Positions 365 through 19,689 of a stretch of DNA of 20,000 nucleotides are shown piece after piece. Positions within the stretch are counted from its first letter, which is position 1, and every line of letters starts with the position of its first letter. The position numbers and the translations under genes are program-made. A model generated the notes under the pieces. The model was not told the DNA's origin. It ran no database searches and worked only from the letters and a program-made list of their open reading frames with translations. Source of the stretch: an uncultured virus (IMG/VR IMGVR_UViG_3300027782_003691) (Duplodnaviria; Heunggongvirae; Uroviricota; Caudoviricetes); the IMG/VR virus record IMGVR_UViG_3300027782_003691, one strand, 5' to 3'.

Positions 365-673
365 CTAATCTTCAAAGATCTTGGACCATCGTTTAAGTTT
401 TTCTCTTTTACGTTCCCTGGCCAGAATCAGTTCAGCTCTATCAATTACACCCTGCTCAACCAATATATCCACCATGCACATTACATCGCCGATCTCCTGT
501 GCTAGCATATCTTTGTGCAGTTCTTTGGTAGTATAATGTTCACTGTCGATTCCAAATCTCCGACATTTACTAACTTCAACTATAACCTCAGCACACTCCT
601 CTTGCAGTATGCCCAGAGCTTCCATTACCCTACGATCGAGTTGTAGGGTTTCGTCATATTCTTTGGAACTCAT
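365..673 (-). CDS. MazG-like nucleotide pyrophosphohydrolase
   Basis: Single helical domain with EExxE (LQEECAEV) and ExxD (QEIGDV) metal-binding motifs. ATG overlaps the upstream stop. Confidence 0.8.
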   Translation of the reverse strand: MSSKEYDETLQLDRRVMEALGILQEECAEVIVEVSKCRRFGIDSEHYTTKELHKDMLAQEIGDVMCMVDILVEQGVIDRAELILARERKREKLKRWSKIFED

Positions 674-1314
674 ATTAATAAATCCTCATGCCATTCTCTA
701 TGTCCTTCTCTGTAAGCCATATTGCTTTGTGTTTCGCGTACTTCTACACGATAGCACCAAAGTCTATCTGCTTCTGCCGTTCCCCACATGTCAGGAATAT
801 AAACGCCATTAACATACCGGTACAGCATGTCAGCTAATCCTTCACAACCTAAACGTGGCAAAATAGTCAGCTTGGCCATGTTCTTAGATTGCAGCAGTTT
901 AAATGTCTCCAGTTCTGGATCATCTTCTGCTACTAGCAATGTATGATCAAACTGATCTTCTAGTGTGTCTTTTAGCTCTTTGAGTCCACCGTAGTCTGCT
1001 GCCCAGTTGCGTACATCCAGGTCGTTGGTGCCAAAGTAAAACTTCATACTAAAGCTGTAGCCATGTATTAAATTACAGTGGCTATCTGCTCGCCACTGTC
1101 TGTAGGCGCAGGGAAAAGCGTCGTGATATTCTTTTGTACTGGTGTACTTGTATTGCACAGTTGATGGCACGCTACTCAATGCCTGCTCTACGTTATCTGC
1201 TAGACTTTTTTGCAAGACTGGCCCTACTGTGTTACCAGATTTTGTGTGATGATAATGATTGATGCGAGCATCGAAGTAATCACTTAGTGCTTGCTGGTGG
1301 GGGTTATTTGCCAT
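670..1314 (-). CDS. queD: QueD/6-pyruvoyl-tetrahydropterin synthase family (T-fold) protein with ~50-aa N-terminal extension
   Basis: Motifs C-x3-HGY (SHCNLIHGYS), DYGGLK, FDHTLL, GCEGLA and VRET. Strong SD TAGGAG before the ATG. Confidence 0.85.
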   Translation of the reverse strand: MANNPHQQALSDYFDARINHYHHTKSGNTVGPVLQKSLADNVEQALSSVPSTVQYKYTSTKEYHDAFPCAYRQWRADSHCNLIHGYSFSMKFYFGTNDLDVRNWAADYGGLKELKDTLEDQFDHTLLVAEDDPELETFKLLQSKNMAKLTILPRLGCEGLADMLYRYVNGVYIPDMWGTAEADRLWCYRVEVRETQSNMAYREGHREWHEDLLI

Positions 1315-2767: not shown

Positions 2768-3460
2768 CTATCGTGGGGCAAAGTCTTGTTGTAGTTTAAT
2801 ATTATCAAAGAATTCCTTCTTTGTATCCATGTGTTCCTTGAACGCACCTTTCAATACTGTAGTCTGTGTTAAACTACTGTGTGCCATAATTCCGCGATTT
2901 TCGCAGCAGCCGTGTATGGCTTGAATATAAACACCCACATCCTCACTGTCGGTTGCTCGCATTATTTCTCGGGCGATGTCGTTACAGAGCTCTTCCTGCA
3001 GAGTACCACGGCGAGCACACCACTGAGCAATCCTAGTATACTTAGATAGCCCGATAAGTTTATTTGCGGCAAGGATTCCAATGTAGGCAACACCAGTAAC
3101 AGGCTGATGGTGGTGACTGCACATACTACGCAACTCACTGCGCACGACCAACATACCTTCATATCTATTCTCCGAATCATTTGGAAACGCTGTACAATCT
3201 GGGGCAGGCTCATATCTGCCTGCCATAATTTCGTTAAAATACATTTTGGCCAATCTATGCGCTGTGCCTTGACTATTGGGATCAGCGTCAATGTCGATCA
3301 ATAGACTTTCTAGTACAGTTTCGAACGCCTCTGTGGCTTCGTTAATTAGAATCCTTTTATCTTCTTCAGTAACGTAGTCACTGATGTTGTCGCCGGCCCA
3401 AAATCTCTTACCATCTGCTTGCATTCTGCGACGAATGCTGTCACCTAAGTATCCCGCCAT
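2768..3460 (-). CDS. folE: GTP cyclohydrolase I (type IA)
   Basis: TAHRLAKMY, SMCSHHHQP (Zn Cys/His), GLSKYTRI, LQEEL, HGCCENRG and EFF motifs. Confidence 0.95.
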   Translation of the reverse strand: MAGYLGDSIRRRMQADGKRFWAGDNISDYVTEEDKRILINEATEAFETVLESLLIDIDADPNSQGTAHRLAKMYFNEIMAGRYEPAPDCTAFPNDSENRYEGMLVVRSELRSMCSHHHQPVTGVAYIGILAANKLIGLSKYTRIAQWCARRGTLQEELCNDIAREIMRATDSEDVGVYIQAIHGCCENRGIMAHSSLTQTTVLKGAFKEHMDTKKEFFDNIKLQQDFAPR

Positions 3461-3907: not shown

Positions 3908-3979
3908 AGTTTATGGTAATTTCATTTGTCATTCACTATTATAACTTAACCATAAATTGATACGCTACCATTATGGCTA

Positions 3980-3987
3980 TATAAATA
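3980..3987 (+). promoter_or_regulatory. T4-type late promoter TATAAATA
   Basis: Exact match to the T4 gp55 late consensus, 5 nt before ATG 3993, with no SD (near-leaderless transcript). Confidence 0.6.
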
Positions 3988-3992
3988 TCTGC

Positions 3993-5072
3993 ATGAAACG
4001 TGCCGTCTTATGTGTGGACAATCCACAAGATTTTATTCCCCAGTTAAAAGATCATTCGATAATGATCATAAATCCTAATGCCCCTGAGGCTAGGAACCGA
4101 TACCTATTGGAAAATTCCGACTGGAGTTTATACATCACTCGAGATCAAGAAAAAGTTAGAAATGGTAATGACTATCCTAACGAAAGAGTACTTTGGTATA
4201 CATCAGGCACCACAGGAGATAGTAAGTTTTGTAGCTTTACACAAGCACATCTAAACAACATGGCTGCTACTATTGTTAGATCATACAACTTGACAGCTAA
4301 CGATAGATATACCAGCATCATGAGCTTATGGCATGCGCATGGGCAGGGTTTTTACTGGGCGGCGCAATTAGCAGGATGCGAAACTACCTACGTTACTATG
4401 AAAGACATTAAAACCTTTCCCTCTACTAAGCCAACTTTTATAACTGCCATTCCTGATGTACTAAGAGTTATTGCTGAATTAAATTTTGACAATTTAAGAT
4501 TTATACGTTCTGCCAGTGCTCCTATGTCACACGATTTATATCACAAATTAAGCGCAAAGTTTAATGTTCCTATAGTAGAAGCGTTTGGTATGACAGAAGC
4601 AATGAGTCACTGTTTCACTAATCCACTTGCCGGCCCACAACGAGTTGGCACAGTAGGATTGCCTGATGGCATAGAAGCTAAAATTGAAAATGGTCATTTG
4701 ATGATCAAGGGTTTTAATATTTGTCATGGTGATTGGTACGATACAGGAGACCTAGCTGACCAAGATGAAATGGGTTACTATCGTATACTGGGTCGTAGTC
4801 GTGATCAAATTAACGTCAAGGGTTCTAAAATTAATCCTGTGAGTATCGAACGACAGTTACTACAGAACATTCCGGGTATGCAGGAATGTGTGGTATTTGG
4901 TACAGATCATGTTAAGTGTCTATATGTAGGTACATGCGATGAAGATACTATCAAGAACTTTTTGATCAGCCTTGGTAAACATTGCAAACCAGCAGTACTC
5001 AAGTGTGTTGATAGTATTCCACTTAGCCCAGCAGGAAAAATATCTAGGGCTTTATTAGATTCCTGTCATTAA
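3993..5072 (+). CDS. AMP-dependent synthetase/ligase (ANL superfamily), compact form
   Basis: YTSGTTGDSK P-loop, FGMTE, YDTGD, GRSRDQINVKG and C-terminal GKI lysine. Start adjusted to ATG 3993 (MKRAVL). It is the only long plus-strand gene. Confidence 0.9.
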   Translation: MKRAVLCVDNPQDFIPQLKDHSIMIINPNAPEARNRYLLENSDWSLYITRDQEKVRNGNDYPNERVLWYTSGTTGDSKFCSFTQAHLNNMAATIVRSYNLTANDRYTSIMSLWHAHGQGFYWAAQLAGCETTYVTMKDIKTFPSTKPTFITAIPDVLRVIAELNFDNLRFIRSASAPMSHDLYHKLSAKFNVPIVEAFGMTEAMSHCFTNPLAGPQRVGTVGLPDGIEAKIENGHLMIKGFNICHGDWYDTGDLADQDEMGYYRILGRSRDQINVKGSKINPVSIERQLLQNIPGMQECVVFGTDHVKCLYVGTCDEDTIKNFLISLGKHCKPAVLKCVDSIPLSPAGKISRALLDSCH

Positions 5073-5754
5073 GGAACTTGTACATCTCATCGGCATACCA
5101 TCTATACGCTTCATCAGTAGGATGTAGAGATTTGTCATCCCACATCTTCTTGTTTTTGGCCTGTCTAAAAAGACTATCAGGATGCACGAAATTCCAGTCA
5201 ATTTTATTGTAATAATTTTTAAACTGTTTGAGCCGTAACAGCGTTCGGTACCAGACAAAGGTATATGGTATACCGTAGGATTTAAGTGTAGACTGAAGTG
5301 ACAATGCTTGGGTTAACATTATCTGATGATTGATTTCATAGGTTGGAATAGTGAGAAATCGACGTCGGAATAATTCATTTTTATTTTCCGCCGCTTCTTC
5401 AGAAGGCATTATATTGTCAGCAGTATGTGGCCATATCCATTCTGACTGCATATATTCGGTGTGTGGATTAGTATTTTTTCCTTTTCTAATCCAGTCTGTT
5501 ATTGGTAGTTTTTGATGAGTTCTAAATTCTACTCGATTTGCAATATTCCAAGATACTAAAACTAAATCATATGGCCTTTCAGTAACCTCTGCGATTACTG
5601 CATCGTGAATATACTGGTTTCCACATCCTGCTCGTGCTATATTTACGATCTCACAGTTTAATTTTTGTTGTAAATAATGTACCCAAGTGCGTTGAGTCCA
5701 TGAGGCTGACAGGTCAGGCATTACTACTGAGGCACCACATACTAAAATTTTCAT
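5044..5754 (-). CDS. SGNH/GDSL-like hydrolase or acyltransferase domain protein
   Basis: Block I-like ILVCGAS, W-x-x-x-L, N-x-A-x-x-G-x-GN and C-terminal LHP (DDKSLHP). Confidence 0.65.
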   Translation of the reverse strand: MKILVCGASVVMPDLSASWTQRTWVHYLQQKLNCEIVNIARAGCGNQYIHDAVIAEVTERPYDLVLVSWNIANRVEFRTHQKLPITDWIRKGKNTNPHTEYMQSEWIWPHTADNIMPSEEAAENKNELFRRRFLTIPTYEINHQIMLTQALSLQSTLKSYGIPYTFVWYRTLLRLKQFKNYYNKIDWNFVHPDSLFRQAKNKKMWDDKSLHPTDEAYRWYADEMYKFLNDRNLIKP

Positions 5755-6806
5755 CTTATATTTAATAGTAAATTACCGGCCGAAAAGAAATCCTTGGACA
5801 ATTTGGCTGCTTGTTGTTCCAGTAAAGGCAGCAATGATTCATAGTTGCTCATGTATGACATGAGTTTTTTAGCTAGATACGGTCTGCTTTTTTCATAAAA
5901 TTTATAATTTTGAGTAAATGTAGAATCATATCTAAATTCATCATAATACATTTCTCTATAACTAAGTCTATCAGGTACCATGGGGATAGCATTAACAACT
6001 GCACCCTCGTAACAACTGATACCCAGTGTTTCCTGTAGGTTAGCACTGAATACTACTTTTGCTTCACCTAATAACGTATGGTATTCATGTTTAGTTAGTT
6101 CTTGATCCTGACACACAATGAATTCATACTGTGGTAATTTAGATGCTAGATCCCGAAATATTTCCACTTGTTTTTCCTGGGCAATGCGATGTGGAAATAA
6201 TACAAGATTACGCTTCTTTAGATTCTTGTATGGGGTAAGTAGTTCATCCATATATTCCATGGGCCACCCAGTTCGTGTTACGTAAGGGTTTGCACCATTG
6301 TCCACTGCATCAAATAAGTTCTTGGCAAACATCTTGATATGAAAATCAGTGGCAAAATAGTTATGATCAAACGCAAAAAAGAAACTTTTTTCCGCATGCC
6401 TAACCCAGGGTTTATCGCCGATTAACCGACCTAGAAAATCTTCAGGATCATAGCTACCTGCATGCCATAGACCGTGTGTAGTTACTGGAATTTTCAGTAA
6501 CTCACTCATGTATCTAAGGTTAATAATACCAGGATGCCAAGCGTCTGTAAAGATAAAATGATCGCCAGGCTTAACTTCACCCTGGGTGAAGAGTCTACCC
6601 ATAGCTTCAACTTGTGCAGCTTTGTAAATGTTGGTGCCCCCAAAATTAAGAAAAGCACCAGGAGTTGTAGCATTAGGGATATCAGTAGGTCCGTCAATAA
6701 TATGGACATTATGTCCTTCCTTTTCAAGTAACAGTGGAAGATGAGTCTTCCACTGCCCGGTATACCGGGTTGAGACTGCTTCTAGATCAACTAAAAAAAC
6801 TGTCAA
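5751..6806 (-). CDS. GT-B fold (GT4-like) glycosyltransferase
   Basis: Likely TTG start at 6806 (TVFLVDLE) overlapping the upstream TGA. Has FPHRIAQEKQ and the E-x7-E motif (ETLGISCYE) typical of retaining GT-B enzymes. Confidence 0.8.
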   Translation of the reverse strand: MTVFLVDLEAVSTRYTGQWKTHLPLLLEKEGHNVHIIDGPTDIPNATTPGAFLNFGGTNIYKAAQVEAMGRLFTQGEVKPGDHFIFTDAWHPGIINLRYMSELLKIPVTTHGLWHAGSYDPEDFLGRLIGDKPWVRHAEKSFFFAFDHNYFATDFHIKMFAKNLFDAVDNGANPYVTRTGWPMEYMDELLTPYKNLKKRNLVLFPHRIAQEKQVEIFRDLASKLPQYEFIVCQDQELTKHEYHTLLGEAKVVFSANLQETLGISCYEGAVVNAIPMVPDRLSYREMYYDEFRYDSTFTQNYKFYEKSRPYLAKKLMSYMSNYESLLPLLEQQAAKLSKDFFSAGNLLLNIR

Positions 6807-7024
6807 TTTATTTTCCCAAATCTGCGTGCATCTTCGGCCCACATGTTCTTGGCATTTTTACCCTGAACAAATTTGTTGTATTGTTGCCAAGCATACGCTT
6901 TAAAATTATATAAATCGTTCTCGTTGTAGCGATACCCATAATCTCTACAGAATTCTAAAAACTTCTCGAGATCGTCTAGAGTTTGATTTGCACGTTCGTT
7001 AGGCTTGAAAGACAACTTTGCCAT
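6803..7024 (-). CDS. Hypothetical phage protein (73 aa)
   Basis: SD AAGGA; translationally coupled to the glycosyltransferase. Confidence 0.75.
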   Translation of the reverse strand: MAKLSFKPNERANQTLDDLEKFLEFCRDYGYRYNENDLYNFKAYAWQQYNKFVQGKNAKNMWAEDARRFGKIN

Positions 7025-7034
7025 TTTAATTCCT

Positions 7035-7493
7035 TTAAATTAATACTGTTTGTGAAGGGCGAGAAAGTTCGTATTTAATGAGGCATCCGTTCTCACCATC
7101 TTCGGAGACCTCAATCCACACCGCACGTTTAGGATAACGTGCAGAAATGTTAATATATAAATCATCTGCGATCATTTCGCATGATTTATAATCTAATGAT
7201 AGAATACCATCTTTGTAAAGATTTTCTAACCATCGTTTAAACTGAATAAACTCAATATCACGATCGTTATGAAATACATCAATCCAAACACGGAAGTGGA
7301 AAATATGTCTATGCTCATTAGCTAGAAATGACACATCATATTCATCACCTGTTGCTAGTAAGGGATCTGTTGCTGCTGCGGGATACTTGTGAATACCTTC
7401 TTTGCGAAAGGTTACCCATACTTTACGTTCTGCTTTATACATAATACGGATAGCTTCTTCTGCTAATGCTTGTTGTCGTTGTTGATTAATCAT
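7035..7493 (-). CDS. Divergent QueD/PTPS-like T-fold protein
   Basis: The pattern EGIH...HRH-x-F-x-F-x-V...IEF-x-x-x-K...SCE-x-IA...IEVSE parallels QueD's H...HGH...DF..K...TxE..A...vxE. Confidence 0.65.
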   Translation of the reverse strand: MINQQRQQALAEEAIRIMYKAERKVWVTFRKEGIHKYPAAATDPLLATGDEYDVSFLANEHRHIFHFRVWIDVFHNDRDIEFIQFKRWLENLYKDGILSLDYKSCEMIADDLYINISARYPKRAVWIEVSEDGENGCLIKYELSRPSQTVLI

Positions 7494-8395
7494 TTGTTAT
7501 CCTGCCATACAATATAACCACGGCTATAATTTTTGGGACGATTTAAGCCATCGTCAAAAGCCTGTTGCCACTCACTATCTCTAGTATACGCTTGCGTCCA
7601 GAAGTAGTCAACATCTAAGTTACCTTTACTTACCCAAAACTCCGCACGAGCCATGACTAAATGGAATCTCGGATTGCGGGGACTGGGAAATACCATGGTA
7701 CATGCTTTCCATAGCAGTTGACTAAAATCAGTTGTGACTTGTTTCTGTGTGCCCATGACTACTAATGCACCAAGATTCAATATATCGCTATCAAATACAG
7801 TAGTCTTATCACTTAGGTCAATAACAACATCGTACTGCCCTACGGGTTTATCCTGTAATCGATCTTTCCATATTGCGGTGTTGCTACTGCCCACAACATC
7901 TACCTCAAATCGCAATCCTTCTATGATTAATGAGTTATATGCTACCCAAGCCAAAAATCCACTGCCCAGGATTAACAATCGACTGCCATCGCCATGTCGT
8001 GCCAGCAGTTCGTCATATGTCTGCATGATGAGGTTATACCCACAGGCCACTGGCTCAATAATGTATCGAGGATGTGCCTCGGGTACCGATACATACTCTC
8101 CCTGCCGAACATTGTAGTAGTCGGAATATGCTGGCTCGCCGCGAGTGGAGACTAGGTCGCCTACCCGTACGTCCAGTACATTTGCCCCAACACGAGTAAC
8201 CTTGCCCAGACCTTCGTGCCCACTCATTTCCAAGGGTAATGGACCAAAGCCCCCAGTCATCATGTCAATGTCGCTGCGGCATACTCCGGTCATAACGGCT
8301 TTGACTTCAATCTCATCTGCGGTGGGATCGGGTTTATTCCAACCTGTTTCCGTAAACTTACCCTTCCCATCTGTATATAAAATTCTTGTTCTCAT
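7490..8395 (-). CDS. Zn-dependent medium-chain dehydrogenase (sugar-alcohol/threonine dehydrogenase-like)
   Basis: GVCRSD, GHEGLGKV, VGDLV, EPVAC and Rossmann ILGSGFLA. Lacks the four-Cys structural Zn lobe. Confidence 0.85.
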   Translation of the reverse strand: MRTRILYTDGKGKFTETGWNKPDPTADEIEVKAVMTGVCRSDIDMMTGGFGPLPLEMSGHEGLGKVTRVGANVLDVRVGDLVSTRGEPAYSDYYNVRQGEYVSVPEAHPRYIIEPVACGYNLIMQTYDELLARHGDGSRLLILGSGFLAWVAYNSLIIEGLRFEVDVVGSSNTAIWKDRLQDKPVGQYDVVIDLSDKTTVFDSDILNLGALVVMGTQKQVTTDFSQLLWKACTMVFPSPRNPRFHLVMARAEFWVSKGNLDVDYFWTQAYTRDSEWQQAFDDGLNRPKNYSRGYIVWQDNK

Positions 8396-9303
8396 GTTGC
8401 CCCCACTAAATCAAGCGATTCAATTGTTTTATGTATCCACATATCCAACTCATATTGATGTTGCCAGTATGCGTCGACGTCCGTCATTTTAACAGCAGTA
8501 TCAATCATACGCTTATACGCATCTTCAGGACACAAGCCTAATTCATAATAATAACGAGACCCATCCGCAAATATCATTAGAATACTGCGATCGTCACCAT
8601 TTAGTGTACGCCAGTCACTTTCAATAAACCACTTACGGCCTTGTGCGTCATTAAAATGCAATTCTATATGATCTTCGACATCATATACTCCATTAGGATT
8701 TACAATGCCATAGTCAGTTTTGATTAAGTCTTTTAATTGCCAACGTTGATCCACTGTTTCGTAATCTAGTTTAGCTTGATCATGAGTAAAGCCTGACAGC
8801 GATTGGAATAAACTTAATAAGTGTGGAATTAAATCTCTACTTACTCCACCAAACGATAAATCATACGTGGTAAACCAAGTGCCAGGGTTAGGAACACGAT
8901 CGTTGTTGTTCCATGTTAGATTAATAATCGTTGCCTTATGTGCTAGTTGTGCTAATACATTAATATTATCACGATATTGATTATTCTTAACCATCATAAA
9001 ACGTGTGTCGGGAAACTCATTACATAGATGTTTCCATTGTGCTGAAGTTTCTAACCCTGGTTTTTCAATGAACACGATCCTGGCATGTTTAGCTACAGCC
9101 CTTGCTATCTCCAAATGAGTAAAGTTAGGAGTACAAATGTTTACTGTATCAAAATATGCGTGTTCCTGTAATGCTGATTTTACGTTAGTATAATCGGCTG
9201 ATTTAGCAGCATCACTATCAACAGTAACAACTTCGTGACCTAACTCAACTAATACATGAAGATATAACTGGCCGATGCCCATACCTATAACAAGACTCTT
9301 CAT
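8392..9303 (-). CDS. Gfo/Idh/MocA family NAD(P) oxidoreductase
   Basis: IGMGIG, ICTPNFTH, IEKP and GGVSRDLIPH (GG-x3-D-x3-H). Confidence 0.9.
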   Translation of the reverse strand: MKSLVIGMGIGQLYLHVLVELGHEVVTVDSDAAKSADYTNVKSALQEHAYFDTVNICTPNFTHLEIARAVAKHARIVFIEKPGLETSAQWKHLCNEFPDTRFMMVKNNQYRDNINVLAQLAHKATIINLTWNNNDRVPNPGTWFTTYDLSFGGVSRDLIPHLLSLFQSLSGFTHDQAKLDYETVDQRWQLKDLIKTDYGIVNPNGVYDVEDHIELHFNDAQGRKWFIESDWRTLNGDDRSILMIFADGSRYYYELGLCPEDAYKRMIDTAVKMTDVDAYWQHQYELDMWIHKTIESLDLVGAT

Positions 9304-10898
9304 GCGGATTTTTCCAGATCTTCAAGTTTAGACTCATCCAGTTCAGATTCATCTACTTGCGTATAATCGGGGATTTCAAATAACGCATCAAACATAGTAC
9401 GTGAATTAACAGTTTTCTTTCCAGTAGCGCCTTTAGTGCCAACGAACCGTTGCCAAAATTTATCATGATAGTCAATGAAAGCAAGAGCATCTTCTAAATT
9501 GTCAATAGAAAATATGGCATCTACTAAATCTCTGAAATATAGCTGTTCAAACTTTTCTTCTACCAGCATAGTGGGACAAATTCCAGCATCATACTCACGA
9601 TTGGAACGCTGCACAGATTCAATATGAGTCCAGACATTGTGTCCCATTAGCAATGCATAGCTAAACGAGTCCCAACTTGTTCTACCTATCTTGCCTATTT
9701 TATTTAGATCAGGCATCACTGTGTAATGTGCTGGATTAGCTGGATCAAAAGTTTCCGTTCCCAATTCAGCCGGAGTTTTAGGAACTCCATCTTTATAGTA
9801 ACAGATATCTTTAACCAGGAAGTTTGCACTCATTGGGCTCTCGTCAAAGTGTTTTATTAGGCCATCTTGTAGCACCGCATCACGATATGTGCGTGTGTCA
9901 GTCGCGTACTTTTTATTGTCAACAATAGGACTCATGCGATAGCACCACTTCTTCCTATCCTGAATATCAATTTGATGATATACTTGTCCATTGGCAGTAG
10001 CCAAGAATGGACTTGCACAGTCAAAGCTAACAGTAAAGTTTGGATTGTGATATTTACGAACAGCACGTTGAATGTCGGTCAACATCAACGCCCACTCAAG
10101 TCTACCAATACCCAGGAAGTGCATCCAGTCATGTAGACCTTCTTCAAGCAATCCTTCAAACCTAAGTGTAACTATTCTTTTTAATACCAGTTCAATATCA
10201 GACGTATGTTGTCCGCCCAGTGCCCAGCCATTAAAATGTTTGCCGGGATATTGTTTTGGATCACAATACTTCTTCATGGTGTTATACCACTTGTGTGCGT
10301 CTGTTTGATTGCCACCCTGTAGTACATTTAAAAATTTACATTTGCCCGAACGATTGGCAATAAAATATTCATTATTAATATACGTAGCATCAACAGCGTC
10401 TTGATATGTATTGATACCAGTGACCTTGCGACTATTGGGAAAGTTGGTAATCCATGTAGGCACATCCAGTACCATGCCATAGTCCATATACGCATCCATC
10501 CAGGCAAGAACTTGCTCACGTTTTTGTTTTGCTTTGGGACATGCAGGATTTTTCCAGTCACCTTCCCATCGACCTTTGCCGATCTGGAACCCGCCTGAAT
10601 CACCCAACAGGAATGTATTGGGATCACGATTACGCACCATGTCTTCGGCCCAGTCCTGTTTATTGATATCTAAATTGGCATGCCCCGCGGAGTACAGACT
10701 CCATTTATATGGGAACAATGCCTTTTGGTCGTTGAGCCAATTAAGCATCTCCATATCCTGGATATTGGCGGGCATACGAGCAGGTTCAACGTGAACGCCG
10801 CCACGTTGTTTGCCTATATAGCTGGAGTAAAAACCCGACAATGCAGGAAGAAAAATCGCATAGTCCAGTTGTTTGGCGGTAAGGTTATCTTGAGTCAT
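9300..10898 (-). CDS. dpdA: tRNA-guanine transglycosylase-fold protein; probable DNA 7-deazaguanine transglycosylase (DpdA-like)
   Basis: Ordered TGT motifs GDSGGFQ, LDVP, VLQGG, ALGG, HFLG, FDCASP and GHN. No CxCxxC Zn motif. Adjacent to the clamp, with folE/queD in the same cluster. The TGT fold is confident; a DNA substrate is inferred. Confidence 0.75.
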   Translation of the reverse strand: MTQDNLTAKQLDYAIFLPALSGFYSSYIGKQRGGVHVEPARMPANIQDMEMLNWLNDQKALFPYKWSLYSAGHANLDINKQDWAEDMVRNRDPNTFLLGDSGGFQIGKGRWEGDWKNPACPKAKQKREQVLAWMDAYMDYGMVLDVPTWITNFPNSRKVTGINTYQDAVDATYINNEYFIANRSGKCKFLNVLQGGNQTDAHKWYNTMKKYCDPKQYPGKHFNGWALGGQHTSDIELVLKRIVTLRFEGLLEEGLHDWMHFLGIGRLEWALMLTDIQRAVRKYHNPNFTVSFDCASPFLATANGQVYHQIDIQDRKKWCYRMSPIVDNKKYATDTRTYRDAVLQDGLIKHFDESPMSANFLVKDICYYKDGVPKTPAELGTETFDPANPAHYTVMPDLNKIGKIGRTSWDSFSYALLMGHNVWTHIESVQRSNREYDAGICPTMLVEEKFEQLYFRDLVDAIFSIDNLEDALAFIDYHDKFWQRFVGTKGATGKKTVNSRTMFDALFEIPDYTQVDESELDESKLEDLEKSA

Positions 10899-10901
10899 TG
10901 A

Positions 10902-11624
10902 TTACTTTGTCTGCGCTGGAATAATGAAAGTATAGATTGCCAAACCAGAGTTAACAATGATTTGTGTAGCACCGCCATCGCTAATACGCATAATTTTGTC
11001 ACCAGCTAAATCCAAAATGCCAATAACTGTCTTAACGGGCCATTGCCATGCACGTTTGATATCACCACCTACATCAGGTTGGAATACAAAGTTACCAGCG
11101 TGTGAGCTATGGTCACCAAAGTAAAACTTCAGATCCCCATCTTCAACTTTAGCTTGGAATGTATTTTCTTCTTCGTTAGCTGACGCTTGCATCTTTAAAC
11201 GCAGAATAGCAGCAGCACTAGGTTCAAATTCAACGTTCCAGGTAACGTCTTTAAACTTGGGAGGTTTGATCTTTTCATTAGCCAGGGCTTCTGCCATAAA
11301 ACGATAGCTGTTTTTAAAGTCACCGTTGGTGTTTACAAAAGTCAGTTGATCCGGGGCTCCGGTATCTTTGCGGCTCATAGTTAACTTAGCACCTTCTTGG
11401 TATTCTTTTAAGTTCAATAGAATACTAAGTTTCTTCAAATTGGGCATACCAAATGTGCCCATGAAGTCTGCTACGGGATTAATAAACATACCGTCAATTA
11501 CCACCGAACGATCGTCAGCAATAGCGTTGAAATTTGTTTCTGTGTCTGTACCTGAAATTCTTAGCTGGTCGATGCCGCCCAATGCATGAATGTGACTGAT
11601 TAAATCTAATAGATGATCTCGCAT
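10902..11624 (-). CDS. DNA polymerase sliding clamp (gp45/PCNA-like)
   Basis: Start adjusted to ATG 11624 (SD AAGGA), 240 aa. Size, FGMPNL..L..LL, beta-rich pattern, C-terminal YTFIIPA and position near the polymerase fit a two-domain clamp. Confidence 0.65.
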   Translation of the reverse strand: MRDHLLDLISHIHALGGIDQLRISGTDTETNFNAIADDRSVVIDGMFINPVADFMGTFGMPNLKKLSILLNLKEYQEGAKLTMSRKDTGAPDQLTFVNTNGDFKNSYRFMAEALANEKIKPPKFKDVTWNVEFEPSAAAILRLKMQASANEEENTFQAKVEDGDLKFYFGDHSSHAGNFVFQPDVGGDIKRAWQWPVKTVIGILDLAGDKIMRISDGGATQIIVNSGLAIYTFIIPAQTK

Positions 11625-11678: not shown

Positions 11679-12605
11679 CTATTTTGAAATTATTTTTGCC
11701 AAAGTCTGTCCGCCTCTCAGCGATGATAACATACCGGGTTTGCGTAATTCAAGCCAGGTCTGTGGACCTTCATCATGCCAGCAATAATCTATAGTATACC
11801 CCATGGATTTTGCCAATTCAAAAACTAAACTACCGGGTGTATAACTGCCGTCTTTCTTTTCTTCCACTAATTTTACTGCTGGCCAACGATCGCAGTCATT
11901 GAACGTCAGCATAAACACACCACCTGGTCTTAATTTGGTATAAATTTCCGACAGGTATTTCTTAATCACTTCCAGGGGCCTAAAGTTAAAAAAGTGACAC
12001 CCTACAATTACACCAAACTGTTCGTTGGGCAATCGGTCTAGCAGCGGATCGTCAGTGTGTTCTTTAATAATATATGGACGCAGTCTTCTCTGATATTGCG
12101 GGTTAAATTTCGTTAATACTGGTTCTAAAAATTGATGGCTAACTTCAACGAGATATAAGGGATCGTATCCCACCATATCATCAATGAAGTTGGCAAATCC
12201 CGGGCGGAAAATCATAGCGGGATAATGCCAATCCACTGTTTTCTTAACTCTAGAATAAAACAATTCAAGATTAATATCGGGTTGCCAACGCCTACCTAGA
12301 ATATGGTGCGCATCGTAGATACTTTCATCATGGTATGCTCTATAGCTTTGTTGAAATAATACTCGTTCCGCTTCTTCAATGTTGCTTTTTAAGTTGCGTT
12401 TAATCTCAGCTAATTCATTGTCAAAAGAATTAAATGCTTCTTTGATAGCTGCATGGCTGTTGATAATCTTATCGACATCAGTAGACGAATGCACGGACAT
12501 TACATGAGAAAATTCTTGTAAAGCGATATCCGCCTTCTCTAGTATAGGCGGAACCGACAGCTTATCCAGTTGATTTTTAAAATGTACTAATTCCGTTACT
12601 GTCAT
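11679..12605 (-). CDS. Class I SAM-dependent methyltransferase-like protein with N-terminal coiled coil
   Basis: LPNEQFGVI...FFNF, YL-x-EIY-x-x-LRPGG-x-F-x-LTF. Motif I is degenerate (IFRPG). Confidence 0.65.
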   Translation of the reverse strand: MTVTELVHFKNQLDKLSVPPILEKADIALQEFSHVMSVHSSTDVDKIINSHAAIKEAFNSFDNELAEIKRNLKSNIEEAERVLFQQSYRAYHDESIYDAHHILGRRWQPDINLELFYSRVKKTVDWHYPAMIFRPGFANFIDDMVGYDPLYLVEVSHQFLEPVLTKFNPQYQRRLRPYIIKEHTDDPLLDRLPNEQFGVIVGCHFFNFRPLEVIKKYLSEIYTKLRPGGVFMLTFNDCDRWPAVKLVEEKKDGSYTPGSLVFELAKSMGYTIDYCWHDEGPQTWLELRKPGMLSSLRGGQTLAKIISK

Positions 12606-15266
12606 TTAAAACTCAAATAGTGATTGGAAAGTATTTTCTGTGTTAGTGGCACTTGCTAGATCCCAGTTTAGTACACTTAGCAGGTTATCGATCTTTTGAT
12701 CTACAATTGTGGCTTCCATTAAACTGTGGTCAAATGGCAATTCCTTAAACCATTCGGGCAAGCGTTGTTCATCTGTAGGATAACCAATACTAGTCCAACC
12801 TAGTGGATTAGCCTTTAGTTTGCACACCACAGTTTTCATACCATCAACGATCTGCATACTATATTTGTCGCTGTTCATTCTGCGCAGATTATTCCAATTT
12901 AATGCTGCACGAACATGACCGGGAAGATTAGCCTTACCCGCAGCTTCTTCTTTCTTGGTGTATGTAGTTAGATTGTTAACACGTTTAGGAGTGCCTTTTT
13001 CCCAAGCTGGTCTATCTTTAAACGCATATTTAAATTCTCGTATTCTTTCAATAATATCATCACGTGATGTACCCGTCAAGACCTTTTCCAGAATCTCATA
13101 CAAGAACTCCTGCACCACTTTAGGAGTATCTGATCTTTTTAGATCCAATCCCATGGCCTTAATCTTTCCAGGATTACCATCGGTATCCAATCGTTTACCT
13201 TCAAGGTCATAGATCAACACAGCATAGCGTTTCTTGGTAATAAACAAACTGTTAGATGCCACCAGCTCGCGCCCTGCTTTGATCAGTTCGCCCATCTCTC
13301 GCGGGCAGTGGAATGCCTGTTCCATAAATGCTGGAAATGATTCGTTAACTTGATCAGCAATATTATCATATAACTGTATACACATGTCCTTGTTCCAGGT
13401 CATTGCGCCCTTAGCTACGTCGTCTTTAATCGCGGGCCAAGCAGTAAAGTAACATGAGTCTGTATCACCATATACGATGGCTTCGCCTACATGATCCTTA
13501 ACACCCATGATACATTCATTGATATGACCGGCCATATGACGAGCAATACTACGACCAGTCAGCGTAGTTGACTGTCCAATACGCTTGTCAAAGAACCGAC
13601 AATGTTGATTAAGAATAGCACCATATAAGCTGTTTAGGTTAATTTTCTTAACCAACTGACGCTTATCCCAAAATGCTATTTCTTTTGGATCGGTAGCTGC
13701 TTTCTTCTTGGCCTGTAGTTCTTTACGTTCAGCATACCACCGCTCCAGCAGTCCCGGGACAACACCCTTGCGCTCATAAGTGACAATGGTACCATTAGCA
13801 GTCAGTATCCAGGGTTGGTTACTGTTAAACACCATGTTCCAGATCTCAGCAGCCGAGTGTACGGACTTCTCACCATTCTGCCAGTCTACAGTGATCTCAG
13901 TACCGCGTTGCTGTTCCATCACCGCAGTATATTCTAACGATGCAAATATACCTTCCCATGCTGCTGTTGCAGATTTTCCCTGACTGATAAGATCATCAAG
14001 ATATCGATCGGTCATTACCGGACGTAATTGACCAATTACCGTTTCCATTCCCATATTCAACGCACGAATAGCTGATGGATACAGACTGTTAATATCCACA
14101 GCACCAATCCATTCGTGTATACCTTTTTTAGGATACGCAACATAAGCACCTGCCGCCGCGGCAGTATCCTCATCGTGTAATCGTTGTTTCTTATTGGGAA
14201 CGACCAATCCACGCTCATGTGCTTCATTGATAATAGCCTGTTCCGTCACCGCCACTGCACTCATGGTCTTCTGCAGAGTTACTGTGTTAGCGTGTGCTAG
14301 TTCATTGGCTAGGTCCAAGAAGCGTAACTTGGTGTCAAGTTTATTCAGGATCATTGTATCCTGTCTGTTATATTCAATAAACTTTTTAAAGTTTTGATTA
14401 TACAGTTGATCCAGTGTTCCTTCGTATTGTGTCTTGTGTTCGTTTAACTCATACTCAGCAATAGCATCCAGACTATAACTATGTCGTTCCTCATATGTAT
14501 ATTGTATATACAACTGCATATAATCCAAATGTACCCGCCCAATTAAATCATATGTTGTGCTGGTAGTGCCATAGCGTTCGTAGTCGCGTGGCTTGGGATA
14601 TTGTCCCCAAAGACAGAACCTACGAGTGTCGTCCTTACTCAACACACGAGTAATACGATTCACTGTGTAGGGAATATCATAGCCCTCGCTATTCCAACCT
14701 GACAGTACATCTGCATCTTCAATTAGATCCAGGAAAGTTTTTAGCATCTCCTCCTCACTATCAAATACAATAGTGTTTTCAAATTCCGATGCTATCTCCT
14801 GTGCTGTCTCCATGCTCATGTGTTTTGGTGGAATAACCAAGGTGACCAATTGATCTATCCATTGCAGATAGACTGATATTGCGGTAATAGCATTAAATGG
14901 ATCTGACGTAGGACTGTATCCTCGTTCTTTGTGGAAGTCTACCTCAATATCGAAAAACGCTGCGTGTAGTGTTGGCGCATCTTTGTCTTTATAGTTTTCT
15001 TCCAGACAACGGAACACGGGGTTAATATCGGATTCGTAAAGTTGCCGACCTTTTTGCACCGCCACTTCCCTACGAAACTCTTTTAAGTTCCGGCTGGAGA
15101 AACGAGCCACAGAAGTTCCATATATTGACTGGAACTTACCACGGGGATCATCATAATAAAATATGTGATTGGCTGGATATTCTTTGTATACTCTTTTACC
15201 ATCAACACGTTCTACAATATGTATACGATCCGCGTCGCGGGAATATAATGCGTCTACATAACTCAC
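12606..15266 (-). CDS. Family B DNA polymerase (gp43-like) with 3'-5' exonuclease
   Basis: ExoI FDIEV, ExoII WNSEGYDIPY, ExoIII YNRQD; polymerase motifs DINSLYPS, KINLNSLYG, YGDTDS and KKRYA. GTG start abuts the upstream TAA. Confidence 0.97.
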   Translation of the reverse strand: MSYVDALYSRDADRIHIVERVDGKRVYKEYPANHIFYYDDPRGKFQSIYGTSVARFSSRNLKEFRREVAVQKGRQLYESDINPVFRCLEENYKDKDAPTLHAAFFDIEVDFHKERGYSPTSDPFNAITAISVYLQWIDQLVTLVIPPKHMSMETAQEIASEFENTIVFDSEEEMLKTFLDLIEDADVLSGWNSEGYDIPYTVNRITRVLSKDDTRRFCLWGQYPKPRDYERYGTTSTTYDLIGRVHLDYMQLYIQYTYEERHSYSLDAIAEYELNEHKTQYEGTLDQLYNQNFKKFIEYNRQDTMILNKLDTKLRFLDLANELAHANTVTLQKTMSAVAVTEQAIINEAHERGLVVPNKKQRLHDEDTAAAAGAYVAYPKKGIHEWIGAVDINSLYPSAIRALNMGMETVIGQLRPVMTDRYLDDLISQGKSATAAWEGIFASLEYTAVMEQQRGTEITVDWQNGEKSVHSAAEIWNMVFNSNQPWILTANGTIVTYERKGVVPGLLERWYAERKELQAKKKAATDPKEIAFWDKRQLVKKINLNSLYGAILNQHCRFFDKRIGQSTTLTGRSIARHMAGHINECIMGVKDHVGEAIVYGDTDSCYFTAWPAIKDDVAKGAMTWNKDMCIQLYDNIADQVNESFPAFMEQAFHCPREMGELIKAGRELVASNSLFITKKRYAVLIYDLEGKRLDTDGNPGKIKAMGLDLKRSDTPKVVQEFLYEILEKVLTGTSRDDIIERIREFKYAFKDRPAWEKGTPKRVNNLTTYTKKEEAAGKANLPGHVRAALNWNNLRRMNSDKYSMQIVDGMKTVVCKLKANPLGWTSIGYPTDEQRLPEWFKELPFDHSLMEATIVDQKIDNLLSVLNWDLASATNTENTFQSLFEF

Positions 15267-16244: not shown

Positions 16245-16334
16245 TCAGGTAGGTGCGTATGGATTACGCTTGTAATCACTGTCGTCACCTTCCTGTTGTT
16301 CGGGATATACTGGATACTCGTTATCAAACTGCAT
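16245..16334 (-). CDS. Small 29-aa peptide MQFDNEYPVYPEQQEGDDSDYKRNPYAPT
   Basis: Not in the ORF track. SD GAGG about 8 nt upstream; overlaps the end of the 1121-aa gene and fills the intergenic gap. Confidence 0.55.
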   Translation of the reverse strand: MQFDNEYPVYPEQQEGDDSDYKRNPYAPT

Positions 16335-19300
16335 TAGCTTTACCTCTAGGTTTCCAATTGTAATCTACATTAATCACTGATATATTTTTATCAGCATAAT
16401 ATTTATTTACATCAAACTTGGGATCTGTAATCTTCATACGTGTTTTGGTACCATCATCAAAATATACACGCCAAACAAAATATTGTCCCGGCTTTAGGTC
16501 GGGAATATTGTCGTCGGGTGTAGGCGGCGGCGGAGCAGGAGGTGCAGCAGGCGCAGCGGCTGGTGCTGCTGCGTTGGGATCTACAGCTTCTTTAACTTTT
16601 TTTTTTACTTCTGCTAATAGCATATTGTATTCGTACTTGGCAGATTCATATACTGCTGGATTGCCAATAACGTTATACCCAGATGCCATGGCCCAGGCTA
16701 AAAAGTTAGTTGATTCTGAAAAATCAAAAGAACCTTTGTGCTTCATTTTACGGAAGTCACCTTTCTTAACATCCAGAGCTTTATTTGTATGAGCCCCTGT
16801 TCCTGGACCAGCTGTCTGAGCACCCTTGGCCACAAGGTTTCTTGCTTGTGCGCTTACCAATGCATTACGGTTAGGATTTCCTTTAAGTGGATCCGCCGTC
16901 TTCATGGTCAAATCTTCAGGTTTCTTTAAATTGGTCAGTGTATCAGAACGAACTGTCATGTTGCCGGCGATACCTTCTTCCATGGAGCCAAAACCTTGTC
17001 CTGGTCGTGGCGCACCTTTTTGTGTACCTTTATAGTATCCACCAAACTTGGCACCTGTTGCGTCATTGGCTGCACGTTTCATACTCTTGGGCTTGGAGTT
17101 ATTCTTTGACTCAGTTTGTGGTGGGTAATTTTGGGGATTTAATTGTCGCATTTGGCGTTCGTATTCTTTGGGATCTGTTTGGCTGAGGTTTTGGAGGTAC
17201 ATATAGCGTTCGTATCCTTTGGGATCTGTTCGGCGGTAGTATTCGAGTTTCGACTCAGGTGGTGCTTTTTTCCTAGGTGCAGGCTCTTCGTACCCCGGCG
17301 CAGGCATCGCTTGCCCCATTTCAGGGCTAGGCTGTGCCTTTACTGGTGGCGCAGGTTGTGCTTGCTGTGGGGCAGGGCTAGGGCGTACTGGTGCGGGTTG
17401 TGCCGGCTGTGGAGCAGGTGCCGGCCGTGCCGGCGCAGGCTTAGGACGTACTGGTGCAGGTTGTACTTTTTCAGTACCGTCCGGATTATAGTGTTGATTA
17501 AAATAGTCCTCAGCGCCACTTTTTGGTGCCATGACACCGCCTTCGCGTCTACGTCTTTCAGCTTCGTCTGAACTGATTGTTGTAGTAACTGGTCCAGTTT
17601 GTTGCGCAGGTTCTTCAGGTGCAGTTGTTTTTGGTTGTGCTGGTTGTTGACGCGGCACGGGTTGAGCTGGCATTGGTTTAGCTGTCTCCGGCGGCTTAAT
17701 GTCAGGTTGTCGTTTTGCTTCGGCATCTGTACCAGGACCCCATAGTCCGTCTGCAACGAGTGCTGGATTCTTCTTTCTTAATTCTTGTTGCCAATCATAA
17801 ACCTGCGGATCAGCACCTGGTGCCAACCCTGGGCGTGATTTTTGTGGTGCAGGAGCAGCACTCTGTGGTGCCGGAGCAGCACTCTGTGGTGCCGGAGCAG
17901 CACTCTGTGGTGCCGGAGCAGCACTCTGTGGCGCAGGAGTTGGTACGCTAGGAGGAGCAGCATATTGTGAATTATTTGGTGCTAATGGATTAGTAGTATC
18001 TACTGGGCTACTGGGCATATTAGGAACAGCATATTGTGAATTATTTTTTGCTAATGGATCAGAAGTGTCAGTTGGTGCCTTTTTCCCAGGTGCAGGTTGT
18101 TCGTACCCCGGCGCAGAAGTAGTACCACCCAGTTGAGGGCCGAACTTCTGCTGCCATTGCTGCGTCCTCTGGTTGAACTGATCTTTAGTTTCTACGTCAG
18201 GCAAATAGGCCGGAGGATTATCTCTAAAGGTTTGATCTATTTTCGGCTCGGGCGGTGCAGCCTTTTTCTTCGGGACTATTGTAGTGTTATCAGGGCCATA
18301 TTCGTAATCGCTGAAATTAAATGGAGTTTTGCTGGCAGGAGCCGGACCTTTTTGATATTGCATTTCAGGGGGATTAGCTGGCGCAGGACCTTTTTGATAT
18401 TGCATTGCAGGTGGCGGGGTGCCTTGGATCGACCATGTCGGCCGGCGCTGTTGACTTCTATATCCACTAAATGCTCCGCCGCCAGTGTCGGATCCAACAA
18501 ATCCATTAGCAGTATAATTGTTTGATTCTCCTGCTTCCGAAATTCTTTTTCCAGATGTGGATTTCATCCATTTACCTAATTCTTTGGATAATCCTTCCTG
18601 AATATTTCCCTGTTGGATCATTTGTTTGATTGCATCTACGGCAGCTTGTCGTCCTTGCTCTTGATTGTTAGGATATTTTTTAAGCATAGCCTGTATAGTT
18701 TCTCGCCATTTGGGATGACCATATATTTGAGAAGGTTTGATTTCTCCAGGTGCAAACTCCTGGGGCTTCATTTGTCCAGATTGGAATGCCTGCATCATAG
18801 TCTGTGTATCTCTAGCTGCTTGATCAGCTATGCTATCTTCTTTAACTTTTTTTTTATTCTTGTTATCCAGCATACCACGTTTGTTGGCTGTGGCCCAAGC
18901 AATGCTTTCGGCATCTTTCTTTGACTTGCCGGCCTTTTCCTCGCTCTTTTCAACATACCCAACAAAACGATCTACCTTTTTGCCTTCCGACACACCTTTC
19001 TCTTTTGGTTTAGCAGACTGATGACGCTTGACTTCCTTGCGACACTTGGTGCAATGTAGCACCCCATCCATGTCGTCGTGCTGACTAGTTTCTTGATAAG
19101 TGCCTTTTTTACAAGCAGTACATTTCTTACCCGTCATATCAACTGTCCCACTGTCGCTTTCCGACATTATGGGTGTTAAGAAATGACTTGCAGGATCAAC
19201 TTCCGTAGTATCGTCAACCATACCAGAAACATTTTTCCAATTAGGAACACGTATAGTGGCTGCTGTTCCATCTACCTCAATAACCTCGGCCGAATGCCCT

Positions 19301-19689
19301 TTAAACAGTACATGATCACCAACATCAAATACACCAGCACCTTCTGATTCAGATGCATCGCCTTCTCCAAAACTATGTCTTTTAAATTTGGTGATAAGAG
19401 CGTGTGCTTGACGACGATTAACCAACTGTGAGCCCAGCTTTTCATCTAACTCCATGCCATCTTCGCCATGCCAATAGTCGCTTAATTTATGTGACAATCT
19501 TTCAACTTGACTGGGGTCTACAATATCCTGTAAGAAACTTGCTGCTTTACGTATAACTTCATTATGGTCACCGGAATCACTATTGAAAGGTGCGTATTCA
19601 CTGTTAGTCCATCTGTCGAATAGATCTCTGATAGTACGTGCCTTATTTCTTCTCGAACGGTCATTTTCAAACAGGTTAAACAAATTCAT
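16324..19689 (-). CDS. Large modular low-complexity protein, probably virion/head-associated (KOW-like, Zn ribbon, peptidoglycan-binding and Pro/Ala/Gln repeat modules)
   Basis: 1121-aa ORF with SD GAGG. Contains FDVGDHV..G...EV (KOW/SH3-like), CTAC-x19-CTKC, and WQQEL...LVADGLWGPGT (PG-binding-1-like). Confidence 0.8.
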   Translation of the reverse strand: MNLFNLFENDRSRRNKARTIRDLFDRWTNSEYAPFNSDSGDHNEVIRKAASFLQDIVDPSQVERLSHKLSDYWHGEDGMELDEKLGSQLVNRRQAHALITKFKRHSFGEGDASESEGAGVFDVGDHVLFKGHSAEVIEVDGTAATIRVPNWKNVSGMVDDTTEVDPASHFLTPIMSESDSGTVDMTGKKCTACKKGTYQETSQHDDMDGVLHCTKCRKEVKRHQSAKPKEKGVSEGKKVDRFVGYVEKSEEKAGKSKKDAESIAWATANKRGMLDNKNKKKVKEDSIADQAARDTQTMMQAFQSGQMKPQEFAPGEIKPSQIYGHPKWRETIQAMLKKYPNNQEQGRQAAVDAIKQMIQQGNIQEGLSKELGKWMKSTSGKRISEAGESNNYTANGFVGSDTGGGAFSGYRSQQRRPTWSIQGTPPPAMQYQKGPAPANPPEMQYQKGPAPASKTPFNFSDYEYGPDNTTIVPKKKAAPPEPKIDQTFRDNPPAYLPDVETKDQFNQRTQQWQQKFGPQLGGTTSAPGYEQPAPGKKAPTDTSDPLAKNNSQYAVPNMPSSPVDTTNPLAPNNSQYAAPPSVPTPAPQSAAPAPQSAAPAPQSAAPAPQSAAPAPQKSRPGLAPGADPQVYDWQQELRKKNPALVADGLWGPGTDAEAKRQPDIKPPETAKPMPAQPVPRQQPAQPKTTAPEEPAQQTGPVTTTISSDEAERRRREGGVMAPKSGAEDYFNQHYNPDGTEKVQPAPVRPKPAPARPAPAPQPAQPAPVRPSPAPQQAQPAPPVKAQPSPEMGQAMPAPGYEEPAPRKKAPPESKLEYYRRTDPKGYERYMYLQNLSQTDPKEYERQMRQLNPQNYPPQTESKNNSKPKSMKRAANDATGAKFGGYYKGTQKGAPRPGQGFGSMEEGIAGNMTVRSDTLTNLKKPEDLTMKTADPLKGNPNRNALVSAQARNLVAKGAQTAGPGTGAHTNKALDVKKGDFRKMKHKGSFDFSESTNFLAWAMASGYNVIGNPAVYESAKYEYNMLLAEVKKKVKEAVDPNAAAPAAAPAAPPAPPPPTPDDNIPDLKPGQYFVWRVYFDDGTKTRMKITDPKFDVNKYYADKNISVINVDYNWKPRGKANAV
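17843..17939. repeat. 21-bp tandem repeat, about 4.6 copies (TGTGGTGCCGGAGCAGCACTC), encoding (APAPQSA)n
   Basis: Near-perfect in-frame direct repeats read from the sequence. Confidence 0.95.

Follow-up and report, generated by a model that had tools for sequence, protein, structure and literature searches.

The stretch of DNA analysed here (20,000 nucleotides of the uncultured virus IMGVR_UViG_3300027782_003691, hereafter the window) bears on how and when a phage enzyme of the DpdA type reaches every target guanine. A TGT-fold, DpdA-like enzyme is encoded in the window next to a protein that is a sliding clamp by its modelled fold, and near its C-terminus this enzyme carries a peptide resembling the end of the DNA polymerase encoded nearby. 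The reading that we favour, with a probability of about 0.68, is that the enzyme is tethered to the phage clamp by this polymerase-type tail peptide and swaps guanine for a 7-deazaguanine in newly made duplex. The argument rests on the following features.

9300..10898, minus strand: TGT-fold (DpdA-like) enzyme of 532 amino acids, with the catalytic-type residues D100 (in GDSGGFQ), D145, H260 and D293 conserved
9303..9449, minus strand: flexible C-terminal tail of the enzyme (residues 484-532), composed of a G/K-rich linker, the putative clamp motif, an acidic stretch and a terminal helix
9372..9407, minus strand: putative clamp-binding peptide of the enzyme, N498-I509 (NSRTMFDALFEI), with F503, L506 and F507 as its core
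9312..9341, minus strand: a second motif conserved in the tail, L520-E529 (LDESKLEDLE), judged to be an acidic amphipathic helix from conservation among 50 homologues and from the model
10902..11624, minus strand: sliding clamp with a PCNA-type two-domain protomer, 240 amino acids from the ATG at 11624 (phrog_12062, an unnamed PHROG)
12606..15266, minus strand: family B DNA polymerase of the T4/RB69 gp43 type (PF00136, E 6.9e-36; phrog_262, E 3.6e-190)
12609..12644, minus strand: C-terminal tail of the polymerase, NTENTFQSLFEF, a presumed clamp-binding peptide

Translation reproduced exactly both the enzyme peptide and the polymerase tail that the first-pass annotation had placed in the window. 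In the enzyme, MFDALFEI is followed by a 23-residue acidic stretch that runs to the C-terminus (PDYTQVDESELDESKLEDLEKSA), and together they make up a short hydrophobic and acidic peptide near the end of the protein. When all six frames of the window were searched for the pattern F-x-x-[LMIF]-F (frames read from stop to stop, at least 40 amino acids long), it occurred 14 times, only two of which lie inside long conserved minus-strand genes, namely those for the polymerase, where the pattern is 2 residues from the C-terminus, and for the TGT-like protein, where this distance is 25 residues. The remaining 12 belong to short open reading frames (ORFs) in alternative frames. The first-pass annotation had also described the shared pattern as beginning with N-[TS]-x3; the core F-x-x-L-F stood, but this leading part did not, since the polymerases mostly read I-x-T-T-F, and what the two tails have in common is limited to [ST]-x-F-x-x-L-F-acidic-hydrophobic.

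In the structural model of the enzyme, the body (residues 1-485) mostly has a predicted local distance difference test (pLDDT) score above 90, whereas residues 491-502 and 510-517 fall below 50. The motif forms a one-turn helix at residues 502-506 with low-pLDDT stretches on either side. Burial in the fold, like lack of conservation, had been named in the first-pass annotation as grounds for refutation, and neither applies: in the model the motif is exposed in a low-confidence, disordered tail, and it is conserved, as described below. Both the length and the sequence of this tail differ among homologues, with the exception of two motifs, the clamp-type motif and the second motif further downstream. 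In the latter, conservation among 50 homologues reaches at least 90% at L525, L528 and E529, and the expression LDExKLDxLE is matched by 85 of 120 close homologues; a helix at residues 522-531 is present in the enzyme model, and the second motif lies outside the confident clamp interface of the complex model described below. Endings similar to it are also seen in distant homologues, such as that of phage PA5oct (...EKLTELEQGL).

The clamp-type motif is highly conserved. When it was sought in the last 75 residues of the 120 closest homologues (60-96% identity), as the first-pass annotation had suggested, F-x-x-[LM]-F was found to be kept in 114 and the looser form [FY]-x-x-[LMF]-F in 119, the sole protein without it reading MFDQLY. 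In an alignment of 50 homologues, the only near-invariant positions of the tail are G487, T488, G490, G493, K494, K495, F503, L506, F507, L525, L528 and E529, and the three core residues F503, L506 and F507 are each at least 90% conserved. In a more distant sample of 111 full-length representatives, obtained by clustering at 50% and having tails that are otherwise unalignable, the strict motif is present in 21, against a chance expectation of 2.9 (mean of 200 shuffles; maximum, 9) and 5 of 521 windows taken from the protein bodies. Some of the distant representatives have endings that retain L-F only, such as ...SLFEF.

Among the conserved gene families, the motif is also confined to the two proteins. 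Across 80 related IMG/VR loci, the strict form F-x-x-[LM]-F was counted within the last 45 residues of each ORF; 67 of the 71 polymerases carry it, as do 67 of the 76 transglycosylase homologues. Eleven further families conserved at these loci, with 362 ORFs between them, are entirely without it (clamp, 77; p86, 66; p152, 59; p308, 57; p363, 46; FolE, 30; GFO, 12; ADH, 11; and three families with 1-2 members each), and it occurred in 29 of 1365 unassigned ORFs of at least 80 amino acids, which are mostly antisense. On these sequence counts, the resemblance between the polymerase and enzyme tails is more than chance.

Among solved structures, the polymerase has its best relative in entry 1clq, a family B DNA polymerase (E 7e-61). 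Its 71 homologues in the related loci all end in a tail like T-F-x-x-[LIF]-F-x-F, which is presumed to be a clamp-binding peptide because the tail of RB69 gp43 has been found bound to gp45 (PDB 1b8h; PMC3012046). When deep lineages are compared, the tails of the polymerase and the enzyme change together in several of them, as would be expected from one shared binding pocket. The pairs of tails are given below (numbers beginning with L are our handles for the loci compared).

The window's clade: polymerase T-F-x-x-L-F-x-F; enzyme [TM]-F-x-x-L-F-E
L020 and L031: polymerase A-F-x-N-F-F-x-F-E; enzyme S-Y-N-x-F-F-E, at the very C-terminus
PA5oct: polymerase HFDSLFGW-stop; enzyme SFNSLFDV
Vibrio phage 2.275.O: polymerase NNTDLFDW-stop; enzyme NNNDLFGW-stop
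L118 (31% identity to the window enzyme): polymerase KAMKLFNY-stop; enzyme KAKSLFEF-stop
Phosso (a weak case): polymerase TFNDLFTF; enzyme VEGLF

In PA5oct (L081:605-5831) and in L118:3955-8154, the polymerase gene is split by an inserted gene, annotated in PA5oct as a Hef-like homing endonuclease, and the C-terminal half of the split polymerase still ends in the clamp-type tail.

The protein that the first-pass annotation took to be a clamp, encoded immediately upstream of the enzyme, is a sliding clamp by its predicted fold. Its model has a pLDDT of 91.1 (33 homologues in the alignment), and nearly all of the Foldseek matches listed for it are PCNA (E about 2e-11, TMq 0.6-0.73), the others including the E. 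coli beta clamp, the African swine fever virus clamp and a 9-1-1 chain. The family was found in 36 phage records, all of jumbo phages, Rak2-like ones included, and in public annotation phrog_12062 is called 'hypothetical' or 'structural protein'. In 77 of the 80 loci the clamp gene is the immediate upstream neighbour of the enzyme gene, and the other three contigs end no more than 260 nucleotides from the enzyme gene. The same adjacency is seen in PA5oct (clamp and enzyme genes EST35_0314 and EST35_0316), Vibrio phage 2.275.O and L118.

Complex modelling, which had been proposed as a further check, was carried out with a clamp trimer and tail residues 484-532, using alignments for both partners, in three runs and three controls. 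The interface score ipSAE was 0.70, 0.67 and 0.68 (median 0.68), whereas the best control reached 0.01; of the complexes and pairs used to calibrate the mark for this score, 116 of 157 solved complexes attain it, as do 2 of 215 mismatched pairs. At least 54% of contacts are common to the runs, with a partner pLDDT of at least 51. Confident contacts are made by tail residues 495-503 and 505-510, and on the clamp side by residues 35, 38-40, 42, 114, 118-125, 127, 154-155, 194, 196, 218-219 and 234-240. F503, L506 and F507 have the lowest-error clamp contacts, F503 and L506 being placed against clamp residues 234-237, 218-219 and 39-42, and F507 against residue 42. We read the contacted residues of the modelled clamp as the interdomain connector and the clamp C-terminal residues, the kind of site known for gp45 and other clamps, so that the enzyme peptide is predicted to occupy the canonical pocket.

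The assignment of the enzyme to the TGT/DpdA type, also made in the first-pass annotation, is upheld by fold, and no sequence library recognises the protein. With the enzyme model (pLDDT 93.2), the best 50 Foldseek matches are all TGT or ArcTGT, as are the best 50 found by VIA, with Z up to 20.1, for 2ash_B (root mean square deviation 4.2 over 302 residues). By sequence, no match was obtained in Pfam (E up to 0.01), PHROGs, NCBIfam or the PDB sequences (phmmer), and a profile of 99 family members searched against the PDB yielded no TGT match and nothing meaningful; a match to the TGT family PF01702 was given by just 2 of the 99 members (E 0.043). The enzyme is thus placed in the TGT/DpdA superfamily by its modelled fold and is not a member of PF01702. 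In an alignment of the 99 sequences (27-76% identity), no variation is seen at S70, D100, S101, G103, P147, H260 and D293, and conservation of D145 is at least 90%. In the bacterial enzyme bDpdA, three aspartates are described as invariant in TGT and DpdA, with Asp95 as general acid/base, Asp130 binding the base and Asp256 as nucleophile, and Asp95 stands four residues before the base-stacking Phe99 (PMC10164549). Mapped by order and spacing only, D100-F104, D145 and D293 would match this arrangement, D100 and F104 being spaced like Asp95 and Phe99, and D100 and F104 would then be the acid/base and stacking pair.

Alignment of the family profile with the DpdA3 of phage phiST (CGPG_00065, 259 amino acids) by hhalign gave a probability of 89% (E 2.4e-6) over 82 columns only, and no match was found at E up to 10 in the genome of the DpdA3-bearing phage CP220. 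Among viral models searched with Foldseek, a TGT of Achromobacter phage Motura (E 1.2e-11) and a protein of Vibrio phage nt-1 (E 5.4e-10) are nearer to the enzyme by fold E-value than the protein of Cellulophaga phage phiST, which ranks 28th (E 4.8e-3). The family is large: 6,616 homologues were recognised among 8,000 candidates scored, forming 947 representative clusters at 50% identity, on contigs of up to 371 kb.

For one distant representative without a tail (P0198), no relative was found in viral contigs; its bacterial homologues lie on alphaproteobacterial chromosomes (L120:6986-8932 and L119:7001-8296; 63% and 59% identity). Neither of these two loci contains an ORF ending in a clamp-type motif, no clamp or polymerase family was seen among the flanking ORFs examined, and the neighbours differ from those at the phage loci. 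Each bacterial homologue comes after a co-oriented ORF of about 545-636 amino acids without a confident family match, and the copy in L120 is followed by a gene for Vut_1 (PF02592), which we take to be a queuosine-precursor transporter family. These loci fit a deazaguanine role for the family as a whole together with a tail that is specific to the phages.

On our best reading, the window carries a module for replication and DNA modification from an uncultured jumbo phage that has PA5oct-like and Rak2-like phages as relatives. Besides the features given above, it contains the following.

11679..12605, minus strand: conserved 308-amino-acid protein between polymerase and clamp, without a family match
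7035..7493, minus strand: DpdL-like small protein of 152 amino acids (phrog_17812)
2768..3460, minus strand: GTP cyclohydrolase I, FolE (PF01227, E 1.1e-38)
670..1314, minus strand: QueD-like 6-pyruvoyl-tetrahydropterin synthase (PF01242, E 2.5e-15; phrog_2389)

The 152-amino-acid protein has 35% identity (E 2e-8) to a stretch of phiST that coincides with CGPG_00067, a protein described as QueD-like by Cui et al. (PMC10516641), which we read as the decarboxylase that these authors call DpdL. Neither QueE nor QueC was recognised in the 20 kb of the window. The gene order p86, polymerase, (p308), clamp, enzyme, (GFO, ADH), p152, p363, FolE is conserved in the 80 loci, with the 308-amino-acid gene present between polymerase and clamp in 57 of them. 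PA5oct, Vibrio phage 2.275.O and L118 lack this gene. The module is found in Pseudomonas phage PA5oct, with QueE nearby, and in Vibrio phage 2.275.O, together with QueF, a Vut_1 transporter and FolE; part of it is present in Sinorhizobium phage Phosso, which has the enzyme gene at a separate place in its genome. PA5oct DNA is reported to resist enzymes that have G in their sites, for which a modified G was proposed (PMC12191111), and a deazaguanine synthesis and incorporation system of this phage is mentioned by Iyer et al. (PMC7824862).

Several genes that sit inside the deazaguanine cluster could serve further decoration of the base. Downstream of the enzyme gene are GFO/IDH/MocA and ADH-like oxidoreductases (7490-9303, minus strand), and these are followed, beyond the DpdL-like gene, by genes for a 236-amino-acid protein without an assigned family and a 363-amino-acid protein (5044-6842, minus strand); the latter has only a sub-threshold match to Glyco_transf_61 and is annotated as 'glycosyltransferase' in Phosso. 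An AMP-binding enzyme, which could act in this way as well, is encoded on the opposite strand (3957-5072, plus strand). Upstream of the replication module lies an ORF of 1121 amino acids (16324-19689, minus strand) with only a sub-threshold ephrin-receptor-like repeat, which is present in 2 of the 80 loci.

The same peptide also ends three unrelated families of small proteins encoded downstream of the enzyme gene in related loci.

L016:14134-14697 and L034:12259-12768, small-protein family 1: ends ...RFSKLFEEVE and ...QFNELFEIAQ
L027:12473-13066 and L035:7993-8643, small-protein family 2: ends ...TFQNLFEYDR and ...NFKNIFEYGV
L077:11484-11762, small-protein family 3: ends ...VFAKLFEIK

These proteins have no match in Pfam or PHROG. 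The pair that includes L027:12473-13066 shows a D...E-x-K pattern, which may mark a nuclease. Judging from this recurrence on unrelated small proteins, the motif appears to be portable, and its bearers may be additional clients of the clamp, or else mobile genes exploiting it. In Phosso, an ORF of about 200-240 amino acids (L117, Phosso 160444-163467, minus strand) ends in ...FASFAEVFSE. Searching genomes at the DNA level for the pattern F-x-x-h-F-x-x-stop, as a way of finding clients, was dropped; the pattern is no commoner than its reversed control (65 versus 67 in PA5oct, 24 versus 29 in Phosso). Sixteen of the 30 hits taken as loci read as an unbroken motif plus stop, and only two of these end open frames of more than 50 amino acids, namely the Phosso polymerase and the L117 ORF just mentioned.

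The arrangement described here has counterparts in known systems. Reviews bear out the T4 precedent cited in the first-pass annotation: gp43, gp55 and gp33 have hydrophobic-acidic C-termini that can replace one another and that attach to gp45 by way of a flexible linker (PMC2988020, PMC3012046). Similar to the gp45 clients of T4/RB69, the enzyme has a short hydrophobic-acidic peptide at or near the C-terminus behind a variable, unstructured linker, one peptide is common to polymerase and non-polymerase proteins of the same phage, and the predicted site is a hydrophobic patch on the clamp face that bears the protruding C-terminus. It differs from them in that the client is a TGT-fold base-modifying enzyme and not a polymerase or transcription factor, and in the place of the motif, which frequently lies inside the chain, ahead of an acidic tail that bears the second conserved motif; the clamp, unlike gp45, falls into its own sequence family, phrog_12062, and is nearest to PCNAs by fold.

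Client enzymes of PCNA that act on new DNA by means of a PCNA-interacting protein (PIP) box include DNMT1 and UNG2. The present case resembles these in that a DNA-modifying or base-excising enzyme would be brought to the fork by a short clamp-binding peptide, and differs in the enzymes, their chemistry and the consensus of the motif, the PIP box being Q-x-x-h-x-x-a-a (PMC3012046).

With bDpdA and DpdA1-4 the enzyme shares the TGT-type TIM-barrel fold and aspartates conserved in a matching order and spacing, and with the DpdA3 system of phiST it shares a context of 7-deazaguanine synthesis genes that includes a homologue of CGPG_00067. Unlike canonical TGT and bacterial DpdA, the window protein has neither a PF01702 match nor CxCxxC, and its 532 amino acids contrast with the 259 of phiST DpdA3, which has no such tail. 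Cui et al. defined DpdA3 and DpdA4 in 2023 and class the insertion of deazaguanine as post-replicative, with efficiencies from <0.1% to 100% between subfamilies (PMC10516641); the word 'clamp' does not occur in the text of that article as consulted. No clamp-tethered DpdA is described in the titles and abstracts of the literature searched. A coupling of a phage DNA-modifying enzyme to the replication clamp has been proposed for T4 alpha-glucosyltransferase and gp45, on the basis of in vitro data (10.64898/2025.12.06.692756). Unlike that enzyme, for which no polymerase-like tail is described in the text consulted, the enzyme studied here has a conserved peptide of the polymerase type that co-varies with the polymerase tail.

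By its model, the enzyme is globular in its catalytic part, which spans residues 1 to about 485, and disordered in the tail, which bears [ST]-x-F-x-x-L-F-[DE]-hydrophobic. In the mechanism that we propose, F503, L506 and F507 would insert into the hydrophobic pocket of the clamp C-face, between the interdomain connector and the clamp C-terminal residues, which is the site used by polymerases. The enzyme would thereby be held on clamps loaded at the fork or left behind it and would swap guanine for a 7-deazaguanine on freshly made duplex. Tethering to the clamp is the well-supported part of this mechanism, with the docking itself seen in a model; binding inside the cell, a modification timed by and coupled to replication, and a 7-deazaguanine as the base inserted in exchange for guanine are what we infer.

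Several observations weigh against this mechanism. The strict motif is missing from 90 of the 111 distant representatives, and in Phosso the enzyme ends merely in ...VEGLF and its gene does not adjoin the clamp gene. The passing docking score may reflect likeness to solved PCNA-peptide and gp45-peptide complexes, and the docking job, with its trimer and custom alignments, differs from the calibration of the ipSAE mark. The predicted interface is no more conserved than the clamp as a whole (9 of 28 versus 67 of 240 residues invariant or at least 90% conserved). The zinc motif CxCxxC is found in none of the 99 family members, the window protein included, whereas conservation of a CxCxxC...H zinc site has been described for DpdA and TGT (PMC10164549). 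Finally, the interaction of alpha-glucosyltransferase with gp45, the nearest precedent, is reported in a 2025 preprint not to have been reproduced in vitro or in vivo (10.64898/2025.12.06.692756).

Three other explanations have to be compared with clamp-borne base exchange. That the two acidic-hydrophobic C-termini are alike by chance or composition, with no function in common, might be argued from the shortness of the motif and from the AT-rich DNA of PA5oct, where the pattern with its stop is as frequent as in the reversed control (65 versus 67). However, the motif is conserved across hundreds of homologues while its flanks diverge, is absent from other conserved gene families and changes in parallel in several deep lineages, so that we regard this explanation as very improbable. 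A real docking motif could also serve another partner in the replisome, such as the clamp loader, the single-stranded DNA-binding protein (SSB), the helicase or the 308-amino-acid protein. Conservation and co-variation point to a shared partner of the two tails and not to its identity, the 308-amino-acid gene stands between polymerase and clamp in most loci, and the clamp interface is not specially conserved. Nevertheless, the polymerase is of the gp43 type, and the hydrophobic-acidic C-terminus of T4/RB69 gp43 binds the clamp; the peptide is modelled in the canonical clamp pocket with a score of 0.68 against 0.01 for the controls; and the adjacency of the clamp gene is stricter than that of the 308-amino-acid gene (77 versus 57 of the 80 loci). 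A partner other than the clamp seems improbable on this balance.

It is somewhat easier to imagine that the enzyme does ride the clamp and either performs another chemistry, for example as a TGT-fold glycosylase or in the processing of apurinic/apyrimidinic (AP) sites, or acts after replication, on clamps left behind, in repair or before packaging. The enzyme belongs to no recognised sequence family and its relatives lack the zinc motif, and the paper on bacterial DpdA remarks on a similarity in fold to Endo IV (PMC10164549). As to timing, Cui et al. hold insertion to be post-replicative (PMC10516641), and clamps have non-replicative clients, such as the late RNA polymerase of T4 (PMC2988020). 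On the other side, the aspartates are conserved in TGT-like order and spacing, the family profile matches phiST DpdA3 at 89% probability, and the gene is found among those for DpdL-like, FolE and QueD proteins, with QueE or QueF in cultured relatives and a Vut_1 gene adjoining a bacterial homologue. We therefore consider a different chemistry or a later action unlikely, and clamp-tethered exchange of guanine on new duplex remains the reading that we prefer.

A clamp tether of the polymerase type would provide a concrete mechanism for coupling base exchange to replication, and it would be a much cleaner case than the contested link between the T4 glucosyltransferase and gp45. It would also define the clamp-binding motif for the clamp family phrog_12062. 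A wider, tentative reading is that in a very large group of jumbo phages, with more than 6,600 homologues of the enzyme in metagenomes, the clamp works as a tool-belt that carries the base-exchange enzyme behind the polymerase, so that G would be replaced within seconds of its synthesis and possibly decorated further; the portable peptide might likewise bring nuclease-like or selfish-gene proteins to the fork, and the second motif (LDExKLDxLE) might bind a further part of the replisome, which would make the enzyme a two-handed subunit. If true, this would explain very high levels of substitution, in a family of enzymes that is abundant and includes that of the cultured phage PA5oct.

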